This document shows, in pieces, positions 1-14,990 of a stretch of 17,734 nucleotides of DNA. The first letter of the stretch is position 1. Each line of letters starts with the position of its first letter. The position numbers were made by a program, and so were the translations under genes. The stretch lies in the UHGV virus genome UHGV-1681308; one strand, given 5' to 3'. This stretch comes from a virus. The notes below the pieces were generated by a model, which did not search any database, was not told the DNA's origin, and was given only the letters and a program-made list of their open reading frames with translations.

Positions 1-119
1 ATGTTGCAACCGTGGGTCACACGGTAAGAGGCGCGGTGATGGTGCTTGTGACATTTGTCACAAGCACCAAGTGATCCGCGAAGACAATCCGGTGCAACGC
101 CGGATGAGATCATGACAGT
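1..119 (+). mobile_element. tnpB: 3' terminus of a TnpB/IStron-type element truncated by the window edge: last 8 codons of tnpB (MLQPWVTR, stop at 25..27) plus omega-RNA scaffold to the right-end boundary
   Basis: Positions 1..119 align to 10192..10310 (3' end of the intact tnpB at 9133..10218 and its downstream region) at roughly 90% identity. Similarity stops abruptly after 119/10310. A 28-nt hairpin at 41..68 differs in stem sequence from the second copy but keeps its pairing. Confidence 0.7.
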
Positions 120-140
120 ACTATTTAACAGGAGCACACA

Positions 141-617
141 ATGACAGAGCGAGAATTGCGGCTCCGGCTGAGGCGGCTCCTGGGTACGGACAGGGGACTG
201 CCGGTCGAGAAGCTCGCTGCAGAACTGACGACACACAAGGTGGACATATTGCCGTACATGACGTGGTTGTGGAAGACACATGGACAGAAGTTCAGAGTGC
301 TGCTGACAAAGAAAGTGGCAGACTACGCAAAAGCGGCGGAAAAGGAAAAACAGAGCCTTCCGCAGCTGATCGTAAATGCTGGCACAATTTTCTTGCGACT
401 CTCAGAAGGCTCGCTTGAATCCGACAGGACTATCGAGATACTCGGTGACATGTGCGAACCTTATGCACTGTACTTCTTATTTGCAGGCGTAGGATTGCCC
501 TGCGACAAGTACCGCGCAGCAGCCAAGGAATACGCAGCTATGTTTCCTGACGCAGTGCGTGCTCTGCCTGAACCGTATAAGAAACTCGGAGAGGCTATGA
601 CACATGATACCACTTGA
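141..617 (+). CDS. hypothetical protein (158 aa), first gene downstream of the element right end
   Basis: ATG at 141 preceded by AGGAG (131..135). Stop overlaps the start of the next gene. No motif recognised. Confidence 0.6.
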   Translation: MTERELRLRLRRLLGTDRGLPVEKLAAELTTHKVDILPYMTWLWKTHGQKFRVLLTKKVADYAKAAEKEKQSLPQLIVNAGTIFLRLSEGSLESDRTIEILGDMCEPYALYFLFAGVGLPCDKYRAAAKEYAAMFPDAVRALPEPYKKLGEAMTHDTT

Positions 618-3102
618 CAAGCATGACTTGACTATGCTGCATGTGCTCAGCTCAGAGAAACTGATGCTGAAGTCGCTGAAGGCTGCCAAGGCAGGGCAGG
701 AACTGTTTCCACCGAGACGTGTACCGCATCTTGATCTGCTGTGGCGACACTTCATACGTTTCGCCATACAATCCAAGAAAGAAGGGCACTGGCTGCAGTG
801 GGACAGACAGGCGTATGTAGCTGACTGCCTCGAAGAACTGAAGCAGCGTGACGACATCAGCGACGAATGCAAAGCGCGATTCCAGGCAATATGCGTACAG
901 TATATCGGCGCTGAGCCATTGGACGCCGAGGCAGGCGACAAGCTGCTGCTGGAAGCTGTCAACGAAGCTATCAGAGCACAGATCAGCAGAGCCGTGTACA
1001 ATTCCGAGGCTTTCGACGGCATCAGACAACTGGTCAATAAAGGCGTCGCGCTGAAGGAGTCGTTGGAGACAGCTGACGAGAAGCAGAAATTGTTTGTGAA
1101 TCCGCTGCTTGAAGTCGAGACTTACCTGCATGTGTTGCCTAAGATGCCTACAGGTGTTCGCTACTTCGACAGAGTCACCAACGGCGGCATGTCTGAGGGC
1201 GAGGTAGCTTTGATTGCTGGATTGATGGGCGGTGGAAAGTGTCTTGGGAAAGACACACCCGTTCTCATGTACGACGGAACTGTAAAGAAAGTTCAGGATG
1301 TACGTGTAGGTGATCAGCTTATTGGTATGGACTCTACACCAAGAACAGTAATGTCTTTAGGTAGAGGTCGCAGTGAAATGTATAAAGTCACACCAGTAAA
1401 AGGTGATCCATTTACAGTTAACAGGTATCATATTCTGACAATGATATGCAGTGGTCCTGTAATATGGAAAGGAGTCAGATATAAACCAGGTGATCTTATT
1501 GATATCTGCGTTGAGGATCTGTACAGGCAATCCGACAGCTTTAAGTCACTTCTTAAGGTTATCAGAACAGGAGTGAACTTTAAACCTAAGGAGGAGCCTG
1601 AGTTAGATCCTTATTTTGTAGGTTTGTATTTGGGAGATGGAACGAAAGGAAAAGCCCAGATCACAACTGGTGACACAGAAGTTGTCGACTACTGTGTTAA
1701 GTATATGCAAGGTTTAGGTTTTGCATGTAATGTATCCAAAGATACTAGACATAACTGCGTTTATGTCAGTATAAGTAGAGCCAGCAACAAAACCGAAGGT
1801 GCGTTAACTATAATTCGTAGGAATACGTTTATAGATGATGAGAAGCGAATTTTGGATGTGTATAAGACTGGAAGCAGAGAGATTCGCATGAAAATACTTG
1901 CGGGTCTAGTTGACTCTGATGGATACACGCACCATGGTTTCCATGAGATAGTTACGAAGTATAGTAATCTAGCAGATGATATATGCTTCGTAGCGCGATC
2001 ATTAGGGTATGCAGCATATGTTAAAAAGTGTGAGAAAAAATGCTATAATACAGGTGCTGCAGGTACGTACTATAAGGTCAGTATATCTGGAGATTTCTCA
2101 GACTTACCTGTTTTGTTACCTAGACATAAGTTGTCAAAACGTAAGCAAGTCAAATCTGTGCTGAGGACAGGATATACTATAACCAAATTACCCGAGGATG
2201 AGTATTATGGGTTTACCATAGATGGTGATCACAGATTTCTTCTGGGTGACTTTACAATTACACATAACACAGCAACAGCAATCCAACTGGTAGGCAGTCA
2301 ACTGCTTGTAGGCAATCCAGTAGCATGGTTCACATTCGAGCAGCCGTTCGATCAGGACCTGATGCAGCGTATGGTATCCTTCATCACAGGCTACAGCCTG
2401 GACATCATACGTGGACGGGAATTCAAGGATCTGCCCGAGGACATTCGGGCAAAGTTTCTCACATTGAGCAACCAAATGTCGGACAAACTGATAGCAGCAG
2501 ACTTCTCGAACAACAACATGCTTGACAAGAACGATCCCGAGGATGATGGCTCTGTTTACAGTCTGTGCAAACGACTTGACATATGGGCTGACCAAGGCAA
2601 AGTGCCAAGCTACATCATGTTCGACTGGGTAGGCGCGGCAGTGAAACGCCTAGCGGCTGTACGCAGCATAGACATCGGGCAGATCACCAACTACATTGCG
2701 CTTGCCAATGAGATCATCGACGGTCTCGTACAGCTTGCCAAGCAGTACCATACGCGTGTAATCTTCTTTCATCAGCTGGATCCGGCGATCAAGAAGTCGC
2801 CTCCGTCCAGGAAGCCTACGACTGTGGAGCTTCAGATGATGAAGACGATGTCGAACTACACGCAGTACGCAATGGCAATCGGCAAGCGTGACGAAAATCA
2901 GCGCTGTTGGTTCATCTGCGACAAGTGCCGTAACAGCTACCCGTCAGAATGCGTCATCGAGCTGGATGGTGCACACGCCAAGTTCAATCTTCTGGAAGGA
3001 TATGCACCAGGCCGCAACGGACAGTTCATAAATATCAACGAGCTGCAGGAGGAGCTCAACGACAACAGTGACACGGCAGACAGCTACCAGCCTATAATCT
3101 GA
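604..3102 (+). CDS. intein-containing P-loop ATPase, probably a DnaB-like (SF4) replicative helicase; extein about 489 aa plus intein 343 aa
   Basis: Walker A GLMGGGK is followed immediately by Cys, and the extein resumes with T after the intein (reconstituted GLMGGGKT). C-extein has a Walker B-like YIMFDWV and a DnaB H4-like RVIFFHQLD. Extein size and P-loop position fit DnaB; a terminase or other RecA-fold ATPase is not excluded. Confidence 0.7.
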   Translation: MIPLDKHDLTMLHVLSSEKLMLKSLKAAKAGQELFPPRRVPHLDLLWRHFIRFAIQSKKEGHWLQWDRQAYVADCLEELKQRDDISDECKARFQAICVQYIGAEPLDAEAGDKLLLEAVNEAIRAQISRAVYNSEAFDGIRQLVNKGVALKESLETADEKQKLFVNPLLEVETYLHVLPKMPTGVRYFDRVTNGGMSEGEVALIAGLMGGGKCLGKDTPVLMYDGTVKKVQDVRVGDQLIGMDSTPRTVMSLGRGRSEMYKVTPVKGDPFTVNRYHILTMICSGPVIWKGVRYKPGDLIDICVEDLYRQSDSFKSLLKVIRTGVNFKPKEEPELDPYFVGLYLGDGTKGKAQITTGDTEVVDYCVKYMQGLGFACNVSKDTRHNCVYVSISRASNKTEGALTIIRRNTFIDDEKRILDVYKTGSREIRMKILAGLVDSDGYTHHGFHEIVTKYSNLADDICFVARSLGYAAYVKKCEKKCYNTGAAGTYYKVSISGDFSDLPVLLPRHKLSKRKQVKSVLRTGYTITKLPEDEYYGFTIDGDHRFLLGDFTITHNTATAIQLVGSQLLVGNPVAWFTFEQPFDQDLMQRMVSFITGYSLDIIRGREFKDLPEDIRAKFLTLSNQMSDKLIAADFSNNNMLDKNDPEDDGSVYSLCKRLDIWADQGKVPSYIMFDWVGAAVKRLAAVRSIDIGQITNYIALANEIIDGLVQLAKQYHTRVIFFHQLDPAIKKSPPSRKPTTVELQMMKTMSNYTQYAMAIGKRDENQRCWFICDKCRNSYPSECVIELDGAHAKFNLLEGYAPGRNGQFININELQEELNDNSDTADSYQPII
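1240..2268 (+). mobile_element. intein (343 aa) with LAGLIDADG homing-endonuclease domain, inserted in the Walker A P-loop
   Basis: N-terminal splicing block CLGKDTPVLMYDGT begins with Cys at 1240. Two LAGLIDADG motifs: YFVGLYLGDGTKG and KILAGLVDSDGYTHH. C-terminal block GFTIDGDHRFLLGDFTITHN is followed by the +1 nucleophile Thr at 2269. The intein DNA looks visibly AT-richer than the flanking extein. Confidence 0.85.
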
Positions 3103-3155
3103 CTTGCATTTTGCTGAATCTGTGCTATATTACTGTCCCTAAAAAGGAGACAGAT

Positions 3156-3659
3156 ATGGACAGATTCAGCACAATATTGCAGACAGCCAAGGCAAACTAC
3201 AGCACAACACATGGCGTTATCCTTAACCTGAGAAGCTCGAACAAACGTATACCGATCACGTTATGCGTATCCACAAGGCGCAACAGAAGTAAGATTGTAC
3301 CTACAGACTGCATTGTCTGGAGTAAGGATCGCATACTGTATCAGGGAACATTGACTGGCAAGCGCCTCAGGAACCTTATAGAGAAGTCTGACTTGTGCTG
3401 CATAGAGGTGACGAATGCTGTGGACATGGATTATGGTCCTGGCAAGTATATATGTCTTAACGATAAAGGTACCTGCCAGTGTACATCATGTCTGTGCCAC
3501 AAGCAGGATGACATCAGCTCAGTCCAGTGCTCAGATGCTGTAGCGTACAGAACAAATGCACTGGATGAACTGTGGCAGCAGGGAATAAAAGAATCAAGAA
3601 AAATACTAAAAGCAAAAAGAAAGGAAGCATTGCGTTATGCAACTGCTTTTTCTGGCTGA
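3156..3659 (+). CDS. hypothetical Cys-rich protein
   Basis: ATG at 3156 with AAGGAG at 3144..3149. The longest ORF begins at 3111, but 3156 has the RBS. No motif recognised. Confidence 0.55.
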   Translation: MDRFSTILQTAKANYSTTHGVILNLRSSNKRIPITLCVSTRRNRSKIVPTDCIVWSKDRILYQGTLTGKRLRNLIEKSDLCCIEVTNAVDMDYGPGKYICLNDKGTCQCTSCLCHKQDDISSVQCSDAVAYRTNALDELWQQGIKESRKILKAKRKEALRYATAFSG

Positions 3660-3936
3660 TGCCGGATCAACAATACACGCCTTTAAGAGCCCTGAAGCAT
3701 GTGTCAACCACGTCTTCAGGGTTTTTGCTGACGCCGGTAAAGGGCCGCATATAGAGAAACAATTATTCAGCAACTCAGATGGACTTCATATGGTAACAGT
3801 GAAGTCGTTCGACAAGAAGAAGGTGCTAGAGTTCATCAAGCAGATGCACCTGCACGCCTCATTCATTGTCGTGCTGAGAAACAGAGAACTGGATACAGAG
3901 GAACGGTACACCATCCGTAAGTCGTACTTAATGTGA
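3637..3936 (+). CDS. hypothetical protein (99 aa)
   Basis: ATG at 3637 with AAGGAAG at 3621..3627. Overlaps the preceding gene by 23 nt. Confidence 0.45.
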   Translation: MQLLFLADAGSTIHAFKSPEACVNHVFRVFADAGKGPHIEKQLFSNSDGLHMVTVKSFDKKKVLEFIKQMHLHASFIVVLRNRELDTEERYTIRKSYLM

Positions 3937-3954
3937 ACAAAATAAGGAGTACTG

Positions 3955-5334
3955 ATGCAAAAAGACATTACAAGATCAACACAGACAACATCCTATGTGA
4001 GAACAAGTATAGTAGACAACGAAGCTGCAGGAACTGATTTCCAGCAGGTTTTCCCATATCAGAAGAAGCTGTTCGGTCGCATTCTGTGGCCCAGCAAGGA
4101 CAGCATCGTGCGTATTGTACCCGGCAATGATGGTACACATACATTCCCGCAGGTAATCAACGCAGATACATGGACCACAGACGGTGACCAGACAAATTAC
4201 CTGTCTGACACTTTCTACATGACATACACTCTCAGCGGTTTCGGTGACAGCAAATGCGATATCTGCAGCAACCTGAAGCCAGGCAGTGATGAAGCCGCTA
4301 TGTATCCTGAATCCCCGCTCAATTACTTCTGCAACAAGATACATCGTACCATGCGGTATGTCTTGCAGGGTAAGGGCACGAAAGTCAGGTACAATGACAA
4401 GTGGCGCATGTGGACAGGGCTGCAAGGTACATTGCCGTTCCCGAAACCTACACTCATGTTCCAGGCTATCTGTGTACATCTGTGCGGAAGGGACTGTCTT
4501 AAGGAGGGCGAGGGAACTGATCCGGCACCTTTGTATGGCGTGATAGGCATCAATAACAAGACATCCATTGGCGAGCTCGTCAAGGCGCTTGTCGCACCCA
4601 TGGACAGACGCAGACCCATCGGTACAAACAACAACACATATGGTGCACTTGCAGAGGCGGCAGGCAACGTACTGTATCTGAACAGCGTCATAGACACTCA
4701 AGAGCACAAGTATCTTCAGCCCAGCATTCAGAGTTCGTCTGCACCTGCAAACAGCTGGGAACCTCAGCAGTACGACCTGACAGAGGACCTGTGCAAGCAG
4801 CTGTGGGTTCCCTGGGATAGAGTGCTGAAATACTATACAGTAAAAGAGCAGCTCGAACTTATAGCGTCTGAGTTTGGCGCTGATACTGTGAATTACGTGT
4901 TCTCTCTGTCTCCGCAGTGGGAAGGTCTGCAGATTCCTGAGCGCATTGCCGCTGTAGGTATGGGGCAGTACGCAGAGAATGCTCAGAGAGCTCCTTCATA
5001 TAGTGCCTTTGGACAGAACGTGCAGAAACAGGCATTTGGCAGTGCTCCCAGACAGGCAGCGCCAGCTTCAACGGCAAGTGCTGTTCCTGGGCTCAGCAGG
5101 GCTGCTCAGCCGTCTTTTGCGCTGCCGAATACGACACCTTTAGCCGGTGGCACTGCAAGTCCTGCTGTAAGCATGGACAGCATCAAAGCAGAGCTGGCAA
5201 AGATCAGAGCGGCCGCCAATACTGCACCCAGTGGAGCGGGAGCATTGGCAAGTGCTATGTTGAACGATCTCGAACTGCCGCCTGATGATGACGTCTACGA
5301 AGCTACAGGTGAGGAAAGTCTGGGAATCGAATAA
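3955..5334 (+). CDS. hypothetical protein (459 aa) with a low-complexity Ala/Ser/Pro region and an acidic C-terminal tail; possibly an ssDNA-binding or other replication accessory protein
   Basis: Strong RBS AAGGAG at 3944..3949 and ATG at 3955. C-terminus ...LELPPDDDVYEATGEESLGIE follows a disordered A/S/P-rich segment. Function is guessed from the tail and the replication-gene neighbourhood only. Confidence 0.6.
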   Translation: MQKDITRSTQTTSYVRTSIVDNEAAGTDFQQVFPYQKKLFGRILWPSKDSIVRIVPGNDGTHTFPQVINADTWTTDGDQTNYLSDTFYMTYTLSGFGDSKCDICSNLKPGSDEAAMYPESPLNYFCNKIHRTMRYVLQGKGTKVRYNDKWRMWTGLQGTLPFPKPTLMFQAICVHLCGRDCLKEGEGTDPAPLYGVIGINNKTSIGELVKALVAPMDRRRPIGTNNNTYGALAEAAGNVLYLNSVIDTQEHKYLQPSIQSSSAPANSWEPQQYDLTEDLCKQLWVPWDRVLKYYTVKEQLELIASEFGADTVNYVFSLSPQWEGLQIPERIAAVGMGQYAENAQRAPSYSAFGQNVQKQAFGSAPRQAAPASTASAVPGLSRAAQPSFALPNTTPLAGGTASPAVSMDSIKAELAKIRAAANTAPSGAGALASAMLNDLELPPDDDVYEATGEESLGIE

Positions 5335-5346
5335 CTAAAACATTCA

Positions 5347-5368
5347 GCCGGGTACTTATGTGCCCGGC
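5347..5368 (+). promoter_or_regulatory. GC-rich stem-loop between the upstream stop and the RBS of the first pentapeptide-repeat gene
   Basis: gccgggta (5347..5354) pairs with tgcccggc (5361..5368) around a 6-nt loop. It lies 3 nt upstream of the AAGGA RBS at 5371..5375. No U-tract follows, so it is not a classic intrinsic terminator. Confidence 0.35.
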
Positions 5369-5383
5369 ATAAGGACAAACAAG

Positions 5384-6406
5384 ATGAAAACAAAAAGAGT
5401 ACTGAAGAAAAACGCAATCAAGGCTTACAAAGCCTTCAACAGTGACCTGACTTGCAAAGGCTTCCGGTATGAAGTCGGCAAGGAATACCACCATAAAGGC
5501 AAGCTTGAGCTGTGCGAGGCAGGCTTCCATGCCTGCCCCAAACTGACTGACTGCTTCAATTTTTACCCGTTCGATAAAACTGAAACCAGAGTGGCCGAGG
5601 TGCTCGTCTGGGGTAAAGTCGAGTACGAAGACATAGGTGACAAGCTCTGCGCCTCAAATATCAAGGTAGTCAGAGAACTTACATGGACAGAGGTGTTGTC
5701 TCTGTGTAACAGCGGCTGCCGTAACAGTGGCTACCGTAACAGCGGCTGCCGTAACAGTGGCAACGGTAACAGTGGCAACCGTAACAGTGGCAACCGTAAC
5801 AGTGGCAACCGTAACAGCGGCTACGGTAACAGCGGCGATTGTAACAGTGGCAACTGGAATAGCGGCAACAATAACAGCGGCAATGGTAACATCGGCCACC
5901 GTAACAGCGGCTGCCGTAACAGTGGCAGCTGGAACAGCGGCGACGGTAACAGTGGCTACTTAAATACTCCGGCACAAAAGTATAGCTTTATTTTTAACAA
6001 ACAAGTTGAAAAGTCAGTCTTGGCTCAGATTGAGTTTCCGGAGTTCATGTGCTTCACTTTGTCAAAATGGATACCTGACTTCATAATGTCACAGCAGGAG
6101 AAAAAGCAGCACCCTGAATACGTTACAACAGGCGGTTATCTCAAGAAGTACACATATAAGGAAGCCTTCAGGAAGTCCTTCGAGGAAGCCAGACGCAAAC
6201 CTGACTGGCCCGAACAGCTTGAGAAGCTGAAATCACTGCCTAACTTCGATGCCAAGGTATTCGAGGAGATATCAGGCATCAAATCAAACGCACTTGGAAT
6301 CAGCGCTAAGGAGCTGGCAGACAAGGCAAAGACAGCCATGGAAGTCACAATGGCGGACATAGAGAAGGTATTCGGTTGCAAAATCAAGATTGTAGAGGAG
6401 AAGTGA
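5384..6406 (+). CDS. pentapeptide-repeat protein (N-x-G-x-x type, about 17 pentads) with conserved Cys/His-containing N-terminal domain and conserved C-terminal domain; paralog 1
   Basis: ATG at 5384 with AAGGA at 5371..5375. Central region is NSGCR NSGYR NSGCR NSGNG NSGNR NSGNR NSGNR and so on. N-terminal VLKKNAIKAYKAFNSDLTCKGFRYEVGK...CEAGFHAC and C-terminal KQHPEYVTTGGY...PDWPEQL...LPNFD.KVFEEISGIK are shared with 10835..11797. Confidence 0.8.
   Translation: MKTKRVLKKNAIKAYKAFNSDLTCKGFRYEVGKEYHHKGKLELCEAGFHACPKLTDCFNFYPFDKTETRVAEVLVWGKVEYEDIGDKLCASNIKVVRELTWTEVLSLCNSGCRNSGYRNSGCRNSGNGNSGNRNSGNRNSGNRNSGYGNSGDCNSGNWNSGNNNSGNGNIGHRNSGCRNSGSWNSGDGNSGYLNTPAQKYSFIFNKQVEKSVLAQIEFPEFMCFTLSKWIPDFIMSQQEKKQHPEYVTTGGYLKKYTYKEAFRKSFEEARRKPDWPEQLEKLKSLPNFDAKVFEEISGIKSNALGISAKELADKAKTAMEVTMADIEKVFGCKIKIVEEK
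5706..5957 (+). repeat. about 17 tandem copies of a 15-bp unit (GTAACAGYGGCNNNN) encoding the pentapeptide repeats, including three consecutive identical units
   Basis: Direct reading: cgtaacagtggcaac occurs three times back-to-back around 5765..5815, flanked by near-identical units. The period of 15 nt (5 codons) keeps the frame. Confidence 0.85.
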
Positions 6407-6407
6407 T

Positions 6408-6806
6408 ATGTCAGCAAATGCTTTCTATCCGCACACAGAAAGGGAACAGTTAGCTCCTTTTGCAAACAAACGTGTGTTGGTAACCGGAAAAGTGCAGCAT
6501 ATTGCAGCGTGGATGTCTGGTAAAAGGTGGGGGTTGCGAGCTACGCTGAAGCAGTGCAGAGTCAAGCATGGTAATATTCAAGTAAGTGTCGACCATTTTA
6601 CAGTCAACGTTGGTAAGCAGTTTATTGCCGTTCAAGCTAAAAGGAACACAACAGTATCTTTCTATGCCACAGTTAAGGCGTACCAGCCTGACAAACAGCT
6701 GAAATATGTACCGGATGATGTCAAGATCGCTCTTGGTTTTACGCCAAGAGTACCATCATATGGTATCAAATGGCCTACAAGGGTCGAGGTGCTCCATCGA
6801 TGCTAG
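6408..6806 (+). CDS. hypothetical protein (132 aa)
   Basis: ATG at 6408 is 1 nt after the stop of the preceding gene, with GAGGAG at 6395..6400. No motif recognised. Confidence 0.6.
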   Translation: MSANAFYPHTEREQLAPFANKRVLVTGKVQHIAAWMSGKRWGLRATLKQCRVKHGNIQVSVDHFTVNVGKQFIAVQAKRNTTVSFYATVKAYQPDKQLKYVPDDVKIALGFTPRVPSYGIKWPTRVEVLHRC

Positions 6807-7288
6807 TACGTGTAATTCCAAGGTACCTTATGGTACAGCTGTATAACAAGCATGTAGAAACTGGCGATACGGATGTGTTTCTTGACGGAAACCACTTTAT
6901 TTCCATTTACAGCACCAGAGATATGTCACCTTTGCCGGATCATCCACACGTATTTAAATTGATGTGCGATGATCTGACACTTGCTGATATGCGCATGTTC
7001 ACAGAGGATGGCTGGAATCATGTTACACTGTTTGATGAGGACATGGCAGACAAGATCGCAGCTTTCATAAAGAGCATTCCTGATACATGCAACTCACTTA
7101 TAGTGCACTGTGATGCAGGTGTCTCAAGATCAGGTGCTATAGGAATACTTGCCAACAGATACTTTAACGATGAAGGCAGCGCTGACGACGAGAAGTTCCA
7201 GCATGATTCGATGCCTTGGCTATCGCCAAACTCGCACATATTGATGCTTCTCAGACCCAGACTGCAAAGAAAGGAAACAAATGTCTAA
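6800..7288 (+). CDS. dual-specificity / protein-tyrosine-type (CX5R) phosphatase
   Basis: Active-site signature VHCDAGVSRSGAIG matches the cysteine-phosphatase P-loop (V)HCxAGxxR(S/T)G. Start is uncertain: the longest ORF begins at 6770 without an RBS; ATG 6800 (GAGGTG upstream, overlaps the previous stop) is preferred; ATG 6830 is also possible. Confidence 0.7.
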   Translation: MLVRVIPRYLMVQLYNKHVETGDTDVFLDGNHFISIYSTRDMSPLPDHPHVFKLMCDDLTLADMRMFTEDGWNHVTLFDEDMADKIAAFIKSIPDTCNSLIVHCDAGVSRSGAIGILANRYFNDEGSADDEKFQHDSMPWLSPNSHILMLLRPRLQRKETNV

Positions 7289-8234
7289 CTTAATCAAAAT
7301 CGGACGCAACAACGAACTCAAGAGAGCCACATTGGAGCTGCCTAAATACGGGGAGCTCACGGACGAGCGCGTAGTACAGGAAATGCGCGGCGTATTTGAC
7401 GGATTCGAATACGACCCAGACACTCAGGTCGAGACTGTGTTCAAAACAGTCGAGCAGATCGAGACTTATGCAGCTGAAGTCAGTAAAGAGCTTGAACAGG
7501 CCGACAATGACTTCAAGATGGCAGCAATCACCAATGCCGGTGCCATTGCAGCCAAGCGCTGGCACTTCGGTTTCATGATCAGCAAGTGCCTCAAGGCTTC
7601 CAAGTATGGTGAAGGGGTCGCCAATAAGATTGCAGCCGCAGCCAACATCTCGCTGCCGTATCTTTATCAGTACAGAGCAGTCGGCGACAATCTCAGTATC
7701 AGAGACGCTTACATCCTTGGTATGTATGGCGCTGGCTGGGATTGTATTCGTCAGGTTGCTGCAGTAAATGATCCCGATACAAGACAGAACCTCATTCAGT
7801 ACTTTGTCCAGTCTATCACGGACTGGAACAACAGTGTCGCCAAAGAGCAGGCTAAAGAGGCACTCAAGTCAGCATTGTCCATGCTGAAGCATGGTCCAGC
7901 CGAACTTGATGTTTCCAGTCCGGCAAAGATTGAGACAGCTGTCAACTTTGAATCCGAAGCTCCTGAATTCATGGAAGCAAAGAAACAGCTGCAGAAGCTG
8001 ATGACAGCATGCAGAGGCATTGTCAAAGATAACAAGCTGTCGCCGATGCTGAAGTCCTTTGGCGACTGTTATCTTGCCGATAATGTCCCCGATGCCGAAG
8101 CGCACCTCGATACACTGCACGAAGATGCGACAGCAGCATTGGAGCTTCTGCAGCAGGTTGAGAGTGTGTTGCCGCAGCTCAAGGAAGAAGTCACAAGCTT
8201 GCAGAATATGGGGCTCAGCCATGCAGACAGTTAA
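7281..8234 (+). CDS. hypothetical protein (317 aa)
   Basis: ATG at 7281 with AAAGGA RBS. Protein-like composition, no motif recognised. Confidence 0.6.
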   Translation: MSNLIKIGRNNELKRATLELPKYGELTDERVVQEMRGVFDGFEYDPDTQVETVFKTVEQIETYAAEVSKELEQADNDFKMAAITNAGAIAAKRWHFGFMISKCLKASKYGEGVANKIAAAANISLPYLYQYRAVGDNLSIRDAYILGMYGAGWDCIRQVAAVNDPDTRQNLIQYFVQSITDWNNSVAKEQAKEALKSALSMLKHGPAELDVSSPAKIETAVNFESEAPEFMEAKKQLQKLMTACRGIVKDNKLSPMLKSFGDCYLADNVPDAEAHLDTLHEDATAALELLQQVESVLPQLKEEVTSLQNMGLSHADS

Positions 8235-8460
8235 TCTTGATGTAGATGTGTCGGACCTTATGTGTCCGCACTGCGGTTCTGTCGACAGTGTCAAGTTGAT
8301 CGACCTTGGACCCGAACGAGATGCAGAGGGCGAATACGGTAACGTCAGATGCACCTGCTATGAGTGCGGCTGGTCGACATGTGACATGGATACAGCAGAG
8401 GACGCAGTGTACGCTTTTATCATCGGTCTCGACTGTGATATCAGGCACGACATAATATGA
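8221..8460 (+). CDS. small zinc-ribbon protein (about 79 aa)
   Basis: CPHCG ... CTCYECG four-Cys pattern. The ORF is open from 8059, but that part overlaps the preceding gene, so the start is placed at ATG 8221. Stop overlaps the next start (ATGA). Confidence 0.45.
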   Translation: MQTVNLDVDVSDLMCPHCGSVDSVKLIDLGPERDAEGEYGNVRCTCYECGWSTCDMDTAEDAVYAFIIGLDCDIRHDII

Positions 8461-8657
8461 AACCGATAGGCTACGGGAAGCTCACCAAGTTCCTCAAAGC
8501 CACAGCACCGATATCAAAGCAGTTTGAGAACGAAGTTCTGCGGGATGAGCGTCTCGCAGAACTTTTTTCGTGTGTAGCTGAGGTTGTGCTGCCGAAAGCT
8601 ACAGAACCGCAGAGATGGGCGTTGTGGCAGTGTTTCAAGGGTCTGAAAGGCGTTTAA
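8457..8657 (+). CDS. hypothetical protein (66 aa)
   Basis: ATG at 8457 overlapping the upstream stop. Ends 27 nt before the IStron left end. Confidence 0.45.
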   Translation: MKPIGYGKLTKFLKATAPISKQFENEVLRDERLAELFSCVAEVVLPKATEPQRWALWQCFKGLKGV

Positions 8658-8683
8658 CAACGCCCTTTAACCAGTGATGGCTA

Positions 8684-9110
8684 TCGAACAAGAAAGTGAA
8701 TTGCTAATAGATCCCAAGAGCCTCACGACGCCTGTAACAAGGATCGAAAGAGAAAACAAAGAAGTGAGGATACCGCAAGGCGACAGTAAGCCTAAACGGG
8801 AGTGACAACGGACGTTTAGCAGCCGAGCCATGCGTTCGACAGAACGCCAGCGCATGGAAGGTTCATCGACTATCCCAGATGGGAGTACCCGAGTAGCCAT
8901 GCTGCGACAGCAGCAAAAGTAAGGGGAAGCACTCTGGCTCAGGAATGAGTCAATGATATAGTCAGTGCTTCATGGAAACATGAAGAGTGGTCTCCTATTG
9001 ACACGGAGAAACCTGCTGTTACCCTGGCAAGGTACAGTGAACAGAACCATGGTCTCATTAAATGCAACATTAATTTGACGTTTTGATTTTCTGTATAAGG
9101 ATGTATATTA
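8684..9110 (+). ncRNA. putative group I intron ribozyme core (IStron intron module)
   Basis: R-like element GTTCATCGACTATCC (8861..8875) and S-like element GATATAGTC (8955..8963) can form P7 (GACTA/TAGTC). Several hairpins lie between them and upstream (ctaaacg/cgtttag at 8792..8819, gcgttc-gaca-gaacgc at 8832..8847, gctgc-gaca-gcagc at 8901..8914). No ORF. Not verified by a covariance model. Confidence 0.5.
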
Positions 9111-9132
9111 TCTGTATACAATAAGGAGTGCC

Positions 9133-10218
9133 ATGTACAGAGCCCACAAGATACGCATAGATTGCACAAGAGAGCAGCACAGCCTGTTAATGCAGACTGC
9201 TGGCTGCGCTCGTTATGCGTACAATTGGGGACTCGATAAGTGGGGCAAGATGTACGAAGCCTGGAAGGCTGATGCCTCGCAGGAGAAACCGGACAGATAT
9301 TCTGTAGCCAGACAGTGGACACAGGAGAAACCAGAGTGGGCAAATAAGACATCCAGAAGTCCAGTTGACTACTCTTTTATCAACCTCGGCACCGCCTTCA
9401 AGAACTTCTCAAGGCGCAAAACAAAGTACCCGAAGAAGCACAAGAGGTCACAGGGAATCTCATTCCAAGTGGCACCTGACAAGGCAGCTATAGTTGACAA
9501 CCAACTTAGACTGCCTAACATAGACTACGTGAAGCTCCGAGAGACTCCACGCTTCCAGGGCAAGATAACAGGCTACACAGTTCAGTACATAGCTTCCCAC
9601 TGGTACGTTACAATCGCCTTCGACTGTCCAGACGTCCCAAAAGAAGCACCGGAGTCCGTCGTCGGTATCGACGTAGGACTCCAGCACCCTGCTGTAGCCT
9701 CCGATGGCACCAAACTAGAGCTCCCCATAGAGAAGCTCCAAAAGCTCGAAGTCAAGAAACGTAGAGCACAGCGAGCCCTCAGCAGGAGCAAGAGAAACTC
9801 CAATGCGCGAAAGCGCAAGCGTACCAAACTCCAGCGTATACAACAGAAGATTACCAACATCCGTCAGGATGCAGCCCACAAGTTTACAACTACGGTGAGC
9901 AAAAACCACGCCACTGTAGTCACAGAAGATCTGGACATAAGTGAGCTCCAAAAGAAGGCCCCCGCACGTTCAGTGCGCAGAGCATACAACAGCTCCCTTA
10001 TGGGAACCATTCTTTGGCAGATCTCGTACAAAGCGGTGCACCATATCAAGGCACCAAAGTACTTTCCGAGCACCAAGAGATGCTCAACTTGTGGACATGT
10101 GAAGGAGGCTATGCCTCCGAACGTCAGGACATATCATTGCGACCACTGCGGTACACATCTCGATAGAGATGAGAACGCAGCTCGCAACTTGATGTTGCAA
10201 CCGTGGGTCACACGGTAA
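9133..10218 (+). CDS. tnpB: TnpB (OrfB) RuvC-like RNA-guided nuclease, IS200/IS605 family
   Basis: 361 aa. N-terminus MYRAHKIRIDCTREQHSLL...RYAYNWGL. RuvC-I GIDVGL, RuvC-II VVTEDLD, zinc finger CSTCGH...CDHCG, RuvC-III DRDENAARNL. RBS AAGGAG at 9123..9128. Confidence 0.9.
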   Translation: MYRAHKIRIDCTREQHSLLMQTAGCARYAYNWGLDKWGKMYEAWKADASQEKPDRYSVARQWTQEKPEWANKTSRSPVDYSFINLGTAFKNFSRRKTKYPKKHKRSQGISFQVAPDKAAIVDNQLRLPNIDYVKLRETPRFQGKITGYTVQYIASHWYVTIAFDCPDVPKEAPESVVGIDVGLQHPAVASDGTKLELPIEKLQKLEVKKRRAQRALSRSKRNSNARKRKRTKLQRIQQKITNIRQDAAHKFTTTVSKNHATVVTEDLDISELQKKAPARSVRRAYNSSLMGTILWQISYKAVHHIKAPKYFPSTKRCSTCGHVKEAMPPNVRTYHCDHCGTHLDRDENAARNLMLQPWVTR

Positions 10219-10326
10219 GAGGCGCGGTGATGGTACAGGCAGCATTCGCTGCAGGTACCAGATGATCCGCGAAGACAATCCGGTGTAACGCCGGATGAGA
10301 TCATGACAGTGCGTGTAACACATCGA
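10120..10326 (+). ncRNA. putative TnpB omega RNA (reRNA) scaffold overlapping the tnpB 3' end, plus about 16 nt of flank as guide (gcgtgtaacacatcga)
   Basis: Scaffold conserved with the copy at 1..119, including a hairpin at 10232..10259 with compensatory stem changes and a second conserved hairpin atccggtg-taa-cgccggat. Conservation ends exactly at 10310. The 5' boundary is a guess. Confidence 0.5.
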
Positions 10327-10834: not shown

Positions 10835-11797
10835 ATGAAAACAGAAAAAGTACTGAAGAAAAATGCAATCAAGGCCTATAAAGCCTTCAACAGCGACCTG
10901 ACCTGCAGAGGCTTCCAATATGAAGTCGGTAAGACCTACAGACATATATTCCTAATCCGCTGTTGCGAGTCAGGATTCCATGCTTGTGAAAGGCTGGTTG
11001 ACTGCTTTGGCTACTATGAACCAAACCAAGCAAAAACTCGAATTTGCGAGGTTCTGGTCTGGGGCGATATTCAGAGGCATGATAAAGACACCAAGTTATG
11101 CGCATCCAGAATCCATATTGTCAAAGAGTTGTCCTGGAACAAAGTATGTCGTCTATGCAATAATACCGGCATCGGCAATCAGGGCTTATATAACTCTGGG
11201 AATTATAACAGTGGAAACTCAAATTCCGGTAACTGGAATGCAGGCAATAACAACAAAGGTAAGTACAATTCAGGTGATTGTAACATTGGTTTAGGTAATG
11301 TAGGCACAGGCAATATAGGCAATAATAACTGTGGCCAATATAATTACGGTCATAGGAATTCCGGAAACAATAACATAGGATGCCGCAATGTAGGAAACTA
11401 CAATACGGGCTACTATAATGTCGGTAACTGGAACAAAGGGTCGTTTAATATCGGCTGCTTCAATACAGCAGATGCCATTGTACATATGTTTAACAAGCCT
11501 GTTGTCGGAATCAGTCCATTCGATATTTTAGTCCCAGGTTTCTGCATCTTTGATACGACAGAATGGGTGTCGGCCAGATGTATGACAGATGAAGAAAAGA
11601 AGCAGCACCCTGAGTACGTTACAACAGGAGGATACCAAAAACAATACGCCTACAAGGAAGCCTTCAGGAAGTCCTTCGAGAAGGCAAAGCGACTCCCAGA
11701 TTGGCCCGAACAGCTTAAGAGGCTAAAGGCGCTGCCGAATTTCGATGTAAAGGTATTTGAGGAGATATCAGGTATCAAGGAAGAGGAACTTATGTAA
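10835..11797 (+). CDS. pentapeptide-repeat protein (degenerate N-x-G-x-x repeats), paralog 2 of 5384..6406
   Basis: ATG at 10835 with AAGGA at 10822..10826; the RBS and first ~110 nt are roughly 90% identical to paralog 1. Repeat region GNYNSGNSNSGNWNAGNNNKGKYNSGDCNIGLGNVGTGNIGNNN... The conserved C-terminal domain ends ...FEEISGIKEEELM. Confidence 0.8.
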   Translation: MKTEKVLKKNAIKAYKAFNSDLTCRGFQYEVGKTYRHIFLIRCCESGFHACERLVDCFGYYEPNQAKTRICEVLVWGDIQRHDKDTKLCASRIHIVKELSWNKVCRLCNNTGIGNQGLYNSGNYNSGNSNSGNWNAGNNNKGKYNSGDCNIGLGNVGTGNIGNNNCGQYNYGHRNSGNNNIGCRNVGNYNTGYYNVGNWNKGSFNIGCFNTADAIVHMFNKPVVGISPFDILVPGFCIFDTTEWVSARCMTDEEKKQHPEYVTTGGYQKQYAYKEAFRKSFEKAKRLPDWPEQLKRLKALPNFDVKVFEEISGIKEEELM

Positions 11798-13324: not shown

Positions 13325-14665
13325 ATGAAAAAAGGACTCGGAAACCTGCTGGATGCACTCAGTAAGGCAGACGGCGGCGTCAGTATGTCCATTACAGAAT
13401 TCAAAGAAGCCCAGTACGGCATTCCGCTTAAGCATTACTGTTTGCAGTATCTTTTCGGCAGCACCGGGCTCAGGTACGGCGGCTTTTATCTGCTTGCCGG
13501 TAAGCCGAAGTCGTGCAAATCGCCCTTTGCTTTCTTCCTTGCACATCTCAGCTGCGAGAATGATGGCATTGCATATGTGTACGAACTTGAAGGCAAGGCG
13601 TCACCGACGTTGCTGACCAGCATGTTTGCAGACAGGCCCGAATGGCGAGAGGATGGCGGCCCTTTCAAGCTCATCCGAGGACTGACATTGGACGGCGCCG
13701 AGAAGCACCTTACAAAGTCTGTGCTCAAACTTTTCAAGCAGTACGAGGTTTACGATACTCCGCTGCTGATCGACTGGGACTCCATCTCAGGAGCTGCGAT
13801 GTCAGATGTCGTGTCCAAGATCGAGAAGGAAGGCGTAGCCAGTAAAGGCTACTATGAAAAAGCGCACATCATGAAGCATCTGACAGAGAGCTGGGTCGCA
13901 CTTACCAACAACATGCCTGTCGTGTTCGTCGGCGTCTTGCAGGAAAAGGAAAAGGCTGCAGAGGGATGGGCACCTGCAGGCGGACCGCAGAAGTCGTATG
14001 GCGGTGGCGATTCGCAGTTGTTCAAGGCAGGTACATTACTGTCGTTCTCTCACAGCACGCTGCAGAACGGTGCTGGCAAGCTCGTTCGTATCAAGACTGC
14101 ACTGAACGGATTTGCAGACAGCAGAGGCATTGAAGTAAAGTTTGTCTGGGATCAGTTCGGCGACCTTGAGACCGATTCACAGGGGCACAAGTGGCTTTTC
14201 GCAGAGGCGACGGCAAAGTGCCTCGCACAGCCGAAGATCGTAGGCGAGCTCAGAGACATCATTGATGTGAAGATCAATGATTCCGGCGACAGAGTGACTT
14301 GCAAGACGTTCGGTCTTGACAAGGTTACAGCAACAGAGTTCGAGGAAGCCCTGTTTGCGCCTGAGAACGCCAAGGTACTGGAAGATCTGTACAGATACCA
14401 AAAGATAGAAAAGATCAAGCTGCCCTCAGAGTATGCAGCTTACGCCGAGAAAGCAGGAGACAAGGAAGCCGCATATAAAGAGGCGCAGAAGCAGGCACAG
14501 CTCGAAGAGCGTGAGGCCAAGGCTGCGGAAGCTGCCGCAAAGGAAGCAGCCAAGCAGGCAAAACGAGAGGCGAAAGTCAAGAAGTCAGCTGCGGCATCCA
14601 ATCCGTTAGCGGCTTTAGCAGACATGGCAAAGAAAGCTGAGGCATCAGATGCAAAAGCTGAATAA
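13325..14665 (+). CDS. RecA-family recombinase, UvsX-like, with a Lys/Ala/Glu-rich low-complexity C-terminal tail
   Basis: Variant Walker A LLAGKPKSCKS resembles the T4 UvsX GPSKSFKS type. Walker B-like PLLIDWDS. L2-like GGPQKSYGGGDSQLFKAG. YVYELEGKASPTLLTSMFADRPEW resembles the UvsX segment after Walker A. RBS GAGGAG at 13314..13319. Confidence 0.7.
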   Translation: MKKGLGNLLDALSKADGGVSMSITEFKEAQYGIPLKHYCLQYLFGSTGLRYGGFYLLAGKPKSCKSPFAFFLAHLSCENDGIAYVYELEGKASPTLLTSMFADRPEWREDGGPFKLIRGLTLDGAEKHLTKSVLKLFKQYEVYDTPLLIDWDSISGAAMSDVVSKIEKEGVASKGYYEKAHIMKHLTESWVALTNNMPVVFVGVLQEKEKAAEGWAPAGGPQKSYGGGDSQLFKAGTLLSFSHSTLQNGAGKLVRIKTALNGFADSRGIEVKFVWDQFGDLETDSQGHKWLFAEATAKCLAQPKIVGELRDIIDVKINDSGDRVTCKTFGLDKVTATEFEEALFAPENAKVLEDLYRYQKIEKIKLPSEYAAYAEKAGDKEAAYKEAQKQAQLEEREAKAAEAAAKEAAKQAKREAKVKKSAAASNPLAALADMAKKAEASDAKAE

Positions 14666-14990
14666 CAAGCGCGTGTTCTGTACACCTTACGACGATCAGC
14701 GTATCGTGACAGCAAAAATCAAGAACGAAAAACACTATGTACTGAAAGCATGTCCGTTCTGCGGACGCAAGCCGGTAATCGAGACAGTGGAGCCGATATT
14801 CCATGATGATAAAGTCCAGTACTTTGTCTCATGTGCGCACCACGGCTGCGACTGCTACACAAGAACCTATCGCAGCCCAGGTGAGGCAATCGCGAAATGG
14901 AACAGACGCATCAGTCCGCTCGATCGCATTGTCGCTTCTGACTTGAAACGCAGTCTTAAAGCAGCGCAGAAAGAGGCGACAAATGTGTGA
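14649..14990 (+). CDS. Lar-family restriction-alleviation-like small Cys protein (putative anti-restriction)
   Basis: CPFCG ... SCAHHGCDC ... EAIAKWNRR matches the pattern I recall for Lar-family proteins (CPFCG zinc motif, conserved AW-NRR near the C-terminus). The identification rests on recalled motifs, not a search. Confidence 0.5.
   Translation: MQKLNNKRVFCTPYDDQRIVTAKIKNEKHYVLKACPFCGRKPVIETVEPIFHDDKVQYFVSCAHHGCDCYTRTYRSPGEAIAKWNRRISPLDRIVASDLKRSLKAAQKEATNV

Follow-up and report, generated by a model that had tools for sequence, protein, structure and literature searches.

The window analysed here, a stretch of 17,734 nucleotides (nt) from the virus genome UHGV-1681308, contains a gene (gene A, 5384..6406 on the plus strand) in the middle of which a 15-nt unit is repeated 17 times, head to tail and in frame, and with a probability of roughly 85% this array is an in-frame variable-number tandem repeat (VNTR) within a phage gene. 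The number of units varies between genomes that are otherwise near-identical, and the units resemble each other in their DNA more closely than their common peptide needs. Gene A, as supported by the list of open reading frames (ORFs), the ENA gene call, Pfam and PHROG, codes for a protein of 340 amino acids (aa), in which a DUF7666 domain is followed by Pentapeptide_2 repeats and a conserved C-terminal domain.

The tandem array and its changes in unit number

The array occupies 5705..5959 of the plus strand, and its units are read as x-N-S-G-x in the frame of the ORF 5360..6406, the ATG of which lies at 5384. A first-pass annotation, made from the sequence alone, had described about 17 head-to-tail units of 15 nt with three identical ones in a row, and had proposed a tandem-repeat finder as a check. 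Run on the window, Tandem Repeats Finder (TRF) recovers a single 15-nt array (5706..5956, period 15, 16.7 copies, 80% matches, 0% indels, score 257), all other arrays in the 17.7-kb window have at most 3.1 copies, and the unit-by-unit listing places the three identical consecutive units, in the register AACAGTGGCAACCGT, at 5768..5812 (plus strand). Also the annotation's statement that the units encode pentapeptide repeats holds, as the product of gene A matches Pentapeptide_2 (PF01469) in Pfam with E=1.1e-12 and 48.1 bits at a gathering cut-off of 26.4. The longest exact self-match within the array is 37 nt, at an offset of 15 and beginning at 5766. The C-terminal border of the array is fixed and consists of a degenerate 18th unit (LNTPA, 5960..5974, plus strand), which is kept in homologs as YLNT[SP][AT]Q.

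The similarity of the units at the DNA level goes beyond what the peptide requires, because their glycine, arginine and serine codons are uniform against a mixed background. Glycine is encoded by GGC in 17 of 17 units, as compared to a GGC share of 36% in the rest of the window's genes (p ~3e-8), arginine by CGT in seven of seven cases (16% in the background), and serine by AGY, that is AGC or AGT, in 16 of 16. The units vary almost only in the first two bases of either x codon and at one synonymous serine position. Plain codon counts are given here because per-codon pN/pS among the units is saturated at two-fold codons.

The most direct evidence for unit gain and loss comes from two contigs, L048 (ERZ914739, from a human-gut metagenome) and L049 (ERZ27262565), which align to 1..9077 and 1..9109 of the window, respectively, with 99.5% identity; all comparisons of unit number made here are between assembled contigs from different samples or genomes. 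Over positions 1..8422 there is not one single-nucleotide polymorphism (SNP) between these contigs and the window, and the sole difference is a gap of 30 nt in the array, corresponding to two units, such that the window has 17 units at this locus and both other contigs have 15. The segment that is missing in L048 and L049 aligns to 5706..5735 (plus strand), where an exact direct repeat of 26 nt is present at 5706..5731 and again at 5736..5761. The long allele of the window contains the junction AGTGGCTACCGT, which is unique within the array, and as a change from the short to the long allele requires both a duplication and a substitution, the simplest history is that the lineage of L048 and L049 underwent a deletion, from which we infer that the difference arose in this way. 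An assembly artefact is an unlikely source of the gap, because all exact repeats are at most 37 nt long and thus shorter than the k of the assemblers (119-127 according to the contig names of L048 and L049, and an assumed 55 for the SPAdes-style contig of the window). A search for further alleles of gene A with a 26-nt word from the left flank gave no exact match in JGI metagenomes or IMG/VR.

The same whole-unit, frame-keeping changes that the annotation had anticipated are found at larger distances. In syntenic orthologs whose flanks are about 90% identical to the window, the array comprises 33 units (L001, 415 aa) or only seven (L004, 285 aa). Among the best 120 homologs, an N-terminal part fixed at 108 aa and a C-terminal part of likewise fixed length (142 or 107-108 aa) enclose between 7 and 41 units, and the length differences between homologs are all multiples of 5 aa; since the unit of 15 nt is a multiple of three, gain or loss of units keeps the reading frame. 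Within ten clusters formed at 90% identity, 21 of 83 alleles depart from the modal unit number, always by whole units, in steps of 5 aa. Alleles with 100% identical flanks differ by one or two units: one of two adjacent NSGDC units is lost, three NTGDY units are reduced to two, and one case is a loss of two units. In other pairs (P0134 versus P0009, and P0191 and P0193 versus P0004), only a part of the array is common to both alleles and the remainder is an unrelated block, which points to an exchange between arrays.

Three points weigh against this reading of the array. A single unit number is held in several lineages (24 units in 11 of 12 members of one, 25 in 10 of 13 members of another) despite a flank divergence of 5-15%, which means that the rate is moderate or that the length is under stabilising selection; the array is thus unstable on an evolutionary time scale and not necessarily in every generation. 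The members of the clusters are also not independent, and the clustering at 90% identity biases the sample. Finally, the unit counts are derived from short-read assemblies, and as at least 11 of 47 IMG/VR loci end within the array, some counts elsewhere may be wrong.

Array-linked assembly breaks were seen in L022, L029, L035-L038 and L041-L046, two contigs of 37,407 and 32,151 bp hold the two halves of the gene at their two ends, and many entries in databases are truncated proteins of 120-190 aa that end in the repeats. A copy of gene A from the P0001 cluster, near-identical and situated on a contig of 8,443 bp, is recorded as two fragments (P0121 and P0122), of which the N-terminal one stops after CNSGCRNSG and the C-terminal one begins at an internal methionine; this split could be due to a frameshift or to a mis-assembly within the array. 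Such arrays break short-read assemblies, and gene calls and unit counts in this family therefore need care.

Concerted evolution, a frozen paralog and the proposed mechanism of unit turnover

Homologs without periodicity at the DNA level, which the annotation had named as evidence that would speak against it, were not encountered: in 34 of 34 homologous loci tested there is a periodicity of 15 nt or a multiple thereof, with 74-95% matches. Each array has its own near-uniform set of codons, for example AAC-TCC-GGC 35 times in one, AAT-AGC-GGT 29 times in another, AAC-AGC-GGA 29 times in a third, and AAC-TCT-GGT 22 times in a fourth. Accordingly, synonymous third-position diversity is 0.12-0.21 within arrays versus 0.29-0.64 between arrays, and for the first base of either x codon, the diversity within arrays (0.56 and 0.48) matches that between them (0.56 and 0.52). 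Codons that are uniform within arrays and different between them indicate concerted evolution.

A control is provided by a second gene of the same architecture in the window, paralog B (10835..11797, plus strand; assigned by its translation and Pfam), whose 320-aa product contains a degenerate array of fixed length at about 11162..11461. The product matches Pentapeptide_2 with 64.4 bits at the same cut-off of 26.4, so the peptide motif is kept, but with scrambled codons, and TRF finds only 1.9 copies in this array. At a divergence of up to 11%, 32 of 32 relatives have an array of the same length, differences in protein length among them resulting only from start-codon calls, and in the syntenic L001 and L004 paralog B has 320 aa as it has in the window. 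Comparison of the B type (0 of 32 varying) with the A type (21 of 83 non-modal) gives p=0.0008 in Fisher's test, with members that are not independent of each other. As the degenerate B array is frozen and the homogeneous A array varies, instability tracks the DNA identity of the units, which is what a misalignment mechanism predicts.

With exact tracts of 26-37 nt, the units are similar enough in DNA for misalignment between them to add or remove whole units; this misalignment could come about through replication slippage or through short-homology recombination, in a single array or between two. The frame and both flanking domains are kept in such changes, and only the number of N-S-G-x-x pentapeptides differs. 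Repeated turnover of this kind keeps the units of one array uniform, as in concerted evolution, while the two x positions stay diverse.

It has been considered that homologous recombination between arrays, either of paralogs or of co-infecting relatives, accounts for most of the turnover by block swaps and that slippage is minor, and the alleles with unrelated blocks, the presence of at least two paralogs per genome, the RecA/UvsX-like protein encoded in the window, and the RecA dependence of contractions of the 15/18-bp repeats in Escherichia coli tolA (PMC3477136) are all in line with this. We nevertheless regard such a dominance of recombination as rather doubtful, as L048 differs from the window by a clean deletion bounded by 26-nt direct repeats, the flanks being unexchanged and free of SNPs over 8.4 kb, and as single-unit losses in runs of identical units are typical of slippage. 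Probably, both slippage and recombination operate. It is very unlikely, on the other hand, that the periodicity is nothing but the footprint of a peptide motif, with a stable DNA array and unit numbers that differ by ancient divergence. The N-S/T-G core is indeed strongly constrained and some lineages have kept one unit number, but the codon uniformity is far in excess of peptide needs, paralog B demonstrates that the motif does not force DNA identity, synonymous diversity is much lower within than between arrays, and two units were gained or lost between contigs that have no SNP in 8.4 kb. There is an equally small chance that the difference in unit number, or even the array itself, was generated by short-read assembly: the window is a metagenome contig of 4.6x coverage, and arrays of this family often break assemblies, leaving many partial proteins that end in repeats, but the longest exact repeat of 37 nt is below k, the k-mers of the short allele do not suffice to build the unique junction of the long one, the same short allele is found in two independent assemblies, and the array is in frame and free of indels.

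Two further explanations address the diversity at the x positions and the location of the array. The variable bases are mostly first and second positions of NAC and NGT codons, third positions hardly vary, and the codons of the fourth position (x4) resemble variants of AAC (TAC, GAC, CAC, AGC, TGC), so that a diversity-generating retroelement (DGR) or another targeted mutator of AAC-like codons might be thought to have written this diversity. This is extremely unlikely, as the adenines of the invariant asparagine and serine codons never vary, no reverse transcriptase is found among the ORFs of the window and no second copy of the array that could serve as template is present in it, and the limitation of x4 to N, D, Y, S, H and C throughout the family points to selection. 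The chance is slimmer still that the 15-bp repeats are iterons of a replication origin inside a gene, like the lambda origin inside gene O: the array does lie in a module for replication and recombination, downstream of the gene for a DnaB-like helicase and upstream of a RecA-like gene, but homologous arrays keep the peptide motif and not the DNA sequence, there are several arrays per genome with 7-41 copies, and the family occurs also in small unrelated phages and in metagenome-assembled genomes (MAGs). Misalignment between near-identical units of an in-frame VNTR is thus the explanation that we favour for the array of gene A.

Repeat domain and flanking domains

In the 193 proteins in which the units were analysed, the Pentapeptide_2 consensus X-N-X-G-X is repeated with a strict period of five residues, the asparagine being present in 99.7% and the glycine in 97.8% of the units. 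The consensus of the family is N-[ST]-G-[NDYS]-x, and its two x positions favour N/D/Y/S and W/G/R/H/Y/C, respectively, a composition which, judged from the sequence, would be typical of binding surfaces. For Pentapeptide_2, AlphaFold2 (AF2) has predicted a narrow beta-solenoid with a 10-residue coil and two units per coil, with no solved structure (PMC9663297), and other predictors agree on the solenoid (bioRxiv 10.1101/2024.10.30.621056). What speaks against applying this to gene A is that the full-length AF2 model has a low confidence in the repeats, with a predicted local distance difference test (pLDDT) of 30-60, and gives weak matches to assorted solenoids; because of this low confidence, the solenoid is assigned here from family membership only. 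The usual rise of solenoids is 4.8 Å per coil. If the solenoid is right, each unit would add about 2.4 Å, and 7-41 units would place about 17-100 Å between the end domains, so that the length of a rod, and with it the size of its variable surface, would be set by the number of units between the ADP-ribosyltransferase-like domain described below and the C-terminal domain. A preference for even numbers or for certain values modulo 4, as expected if only whole coils were tolerated, is not apparent among the unit numbers, and indels of one unit occur.

Three known systems are close enough for comparison. The Pentapeptide_2 proteins of the PE/PPE_MPTR group share the X-N-X-G-X motif, and like gene A they have long head-to-tail runs that have been expanded and rearranged in evolution (PMC4858275). 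Unlike these mycobacterial proteins, the array described here is found in a phage, its neighbours are DUF7666 and a novel C-terminal domain where the others have PE or PPE, its units are far more uniform in DNA, and their number differs between genomes that are identical over 8.4 kb. The tolA gene of E. coli is similar in having imperfect in-frame coding repeats, of 15 or 18 bp, that form a connector between two functional domains; there, 8-16 copies have been found among isolates, contraction occurs at 6.9e-5 and is RecA-dependent, and the phenotype follows the copy number (PMC3477136). However, TolA is a cellular envelope protein with a lysine/alanine-rich alpha-helix, whereas here asparagine/serine/glycine units of a phage protein probably form a solenoid, and the range of 7-41 units in the gene A family is wider. 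The classical pentapeptide-repeat proteins (PF00805), such as Qnr and MfpA with their four-sided beta-helix, differ in their consensus, which is A-[DN]-L-x-x and not N-[ST]-G-x-x, and the repeats of gene A have no central hydrophobic residue and a predicted coil of 10 instead of 20 residues. A search of the gene A protein with PF00805 gave no match at E values up to 1.

The N-terminal domain (aa 1-107, encoded at 5384..5704 of the plus strand) matches DUF7666 at aa 12-106 with E=1.7e-30, and the whole product belongs to phrog_14105 (E=5e-81). A literature search found no paper that mentions DUF7666. The domain was modelled from a diverse alignment of 89 sequences with a pLDDT of 88.6 and a predicted template modelling score (pTM) of 0.81, and the structures that match this model are almost exclusively ADP-ribosyltransferase (ART) folds: BC2332 (2aua) leads with 7.6, followed by PARP15 (6.5), Tpt1 and PARP13 (6.1 each), Arr (5.9), Rhs ART toxins (5.1), diphtheria toxin (4.9), and pertussis toxin and AcrF11 (4.8 each), with DarT lower in the list. 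BC2332 itself belongs to the ADP-ribosylation superfamily of SCOP and matches toxin active-site templates (PMC3000352, PMC3024214). As regards the catalytic signature of ARTs (H-Y-E or R-S-E), H49 is invariant in the alignment, E72 is found in at least 90% of the sequences, and a tyrosine near position 61 is common; three cysteines (C24, C44, C51) are also conserved.

A point against the assignment is that the predicted fold is what connects DUF7666 to ARTs: Pfam gives only DUF7666, and a profile of 26 diverse N-terminal domains finds no ART among the PDB sequences. From the ART superfamily (BC2332-like proteins, PARP, Tpt1/KptA, Arr, and phage and anti-CRISPR proteins such as AcrF11) the domain differs not only in this lack of sequence-profile similarity but also in its small size of about 100 residues and its three conserved cysteines. 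On the basis of the model, an ART-like fold of DUF7666 is nonetheless fairly likely.

The C-terminal domain (5975..6403, plus strand) is conserved in the 120 homologs with a fixed length, which is 142 aa here and 107-108 aa in some homologs, and it has no family match in Pfam, NCBIfam, PADLOC or among PDB sequences. Likewise, a function search for the gene A protein returned nothing in NCBIfam, PADLOC, PDB sequences or Rfam.

Phage context and meaning of the array

Three ORFs that overlap the array in other frames had been called artefacts of the periodicity in the first-pass annotation, and this view can be maintained. All are present: an antisense ORF of 81 aa (5654..5899, minus strand) and an alternate-frame ORF of 78 aa that lies wholly within the array (5727..5963, plus strand) both have a periodic VTVAT translation, and the translation of a further antisense ORF of 98 aa (5679..5975, minus strand) is a periodic CYGCH/CYRSR. 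As read from the sequence, the consensus unit GTAACAGCGGCAACC contains a stop codon in one of the six frames and leaves the other five open, and because of this and of the periodic translations, these ORFs are regarded as by-products.

The window corresponds to the metagenomic ENA contig ERZ773229 NODE_1285, with 4.6x coverage, and its phage origin is supported by relatives in IMG/VR and by PHROG matches. It carries a phage-like module for replication and recombination, comprising the genes of an intein-containing DnaB-like helicase, of a RecA/UvsX-like protein (13325..14665) and of a Lar-like protein, together with a TnpB element. Megablast of gene A and of the whole window against the cultured phages in INPHARED gave no match, and tblastn against cultured phages gave matches of the N-terminal domain only, with less than 60% identity, the RecA-like protein being unmatched. 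One homolog search returned 6,701 relatives at E<=1e-5. Many relatives of gene A are encoded on contigs of uncultivated gut phages, several of which are about 190 kb long, and more distant ones are found in smaller phages and in MAGs of Clostridia. The same architecture at 37-48% identity (L051-L057) occurs in MAGs of Clostridia, Lachnospiraceae, Thermoclostridium, Treponema and Mycoplasmataceae, and this occurrence of distant relatives is a hint that parts of the family reside in prophages and have hosts among the Firmicutes.

A small ORF at 6800..7288, which follows gene A at a distance of two genes, has a weak match to dual-specificity/tyrosine phosphatases (DSPc, E=3.5e-5, under the Pfam cut-off), and a Lar-like restriction-alleviation protein is encoded at 14649..14990 (phrog_599, E=1e-10; Lar_restr_allev of Pfam in the public record). 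Both would fit a host-takeover or anti-defence neighbourhood. It is a speculative thought that the gene A protein itself is a host-takeover or anti-defence factor of the phage, the reach or binding surface of which would be tuned by the array.

Two further features were noticed in the module. The ORF of the DnaB-like helicase/ATPase (604..3102) contains at about 1239..2265 an intein with a LAGLIDADG homing endonuclease (Hom_end_hint E=8e-22, Hom_end E=3e-10), and this segment of about 1,027 bp is precisely missing from the syntenic gene of L004. An element of the IS200/IS605 type at 8654..10310 codes for a TnpB-like protein as its sole product (ORF 9133..10218; PHROG transposase E=6e-87; OrfB_IS605, Cas12f1-like_TNB). 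Its site is empty in the syntenic region of L001, so that it is an insertion; related copies lie just upstream of gene A in L004 and at 3074..4736 of L048 (89% identical), and the element thus appears to be mobile among these phages. In or near this element are also all 12-13 SNPs and the one 1-nt indel by which the window differs from L048 and L049 at positions from 8423 onwards. Eleven of these SNPs and the indel are found at 8803..8920, inside the left end of the element, and the others at 8423 and, in L049 only, at 9106; both contigs stop shortly thereafter. The cluster at 8803..8920 may have arisen because the site is occupied by another copy of the element, or because copies were mixed in the assembly.

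As a locus, the array of gene A is of a known kind, an in-frame coding tandem-repeat polymorphism, and what is new is the large, previously undescribed family of phage proteins in which it occurs. Phages from different people differ over 8.4 kb in nothing but this array, a clear natural case of a coding repeat that outpaces everything around it, with a built-in control in the same genome in the form of a sister gene whose repeat DNA has decayed and whose length is frozen. For the family as a whole, the N-terminal domain with its predicted ART fold and a unit number that sets the length of the repeat domain offer a handle. A much bolder idea, which we consider improbable, is that the arrays are an evolvability device of a multi-copy family of phage effectors, in which an ART-like head on a solenoid is retargeted in the arms race with host defences. 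If this were true, rapid unit turnover would reset the length of the solenoid, the two x positions of each unit, which are rich in W, Y, H, D, N and R and as diverse within one array as they are family-wide, would be exposed on it and contribute to the retargeting, and the system would be a repeat-based counterpart of diversity-generating retroelements or of variable lymphocyte receptors, with one paralog per genome frozen as the stable version.

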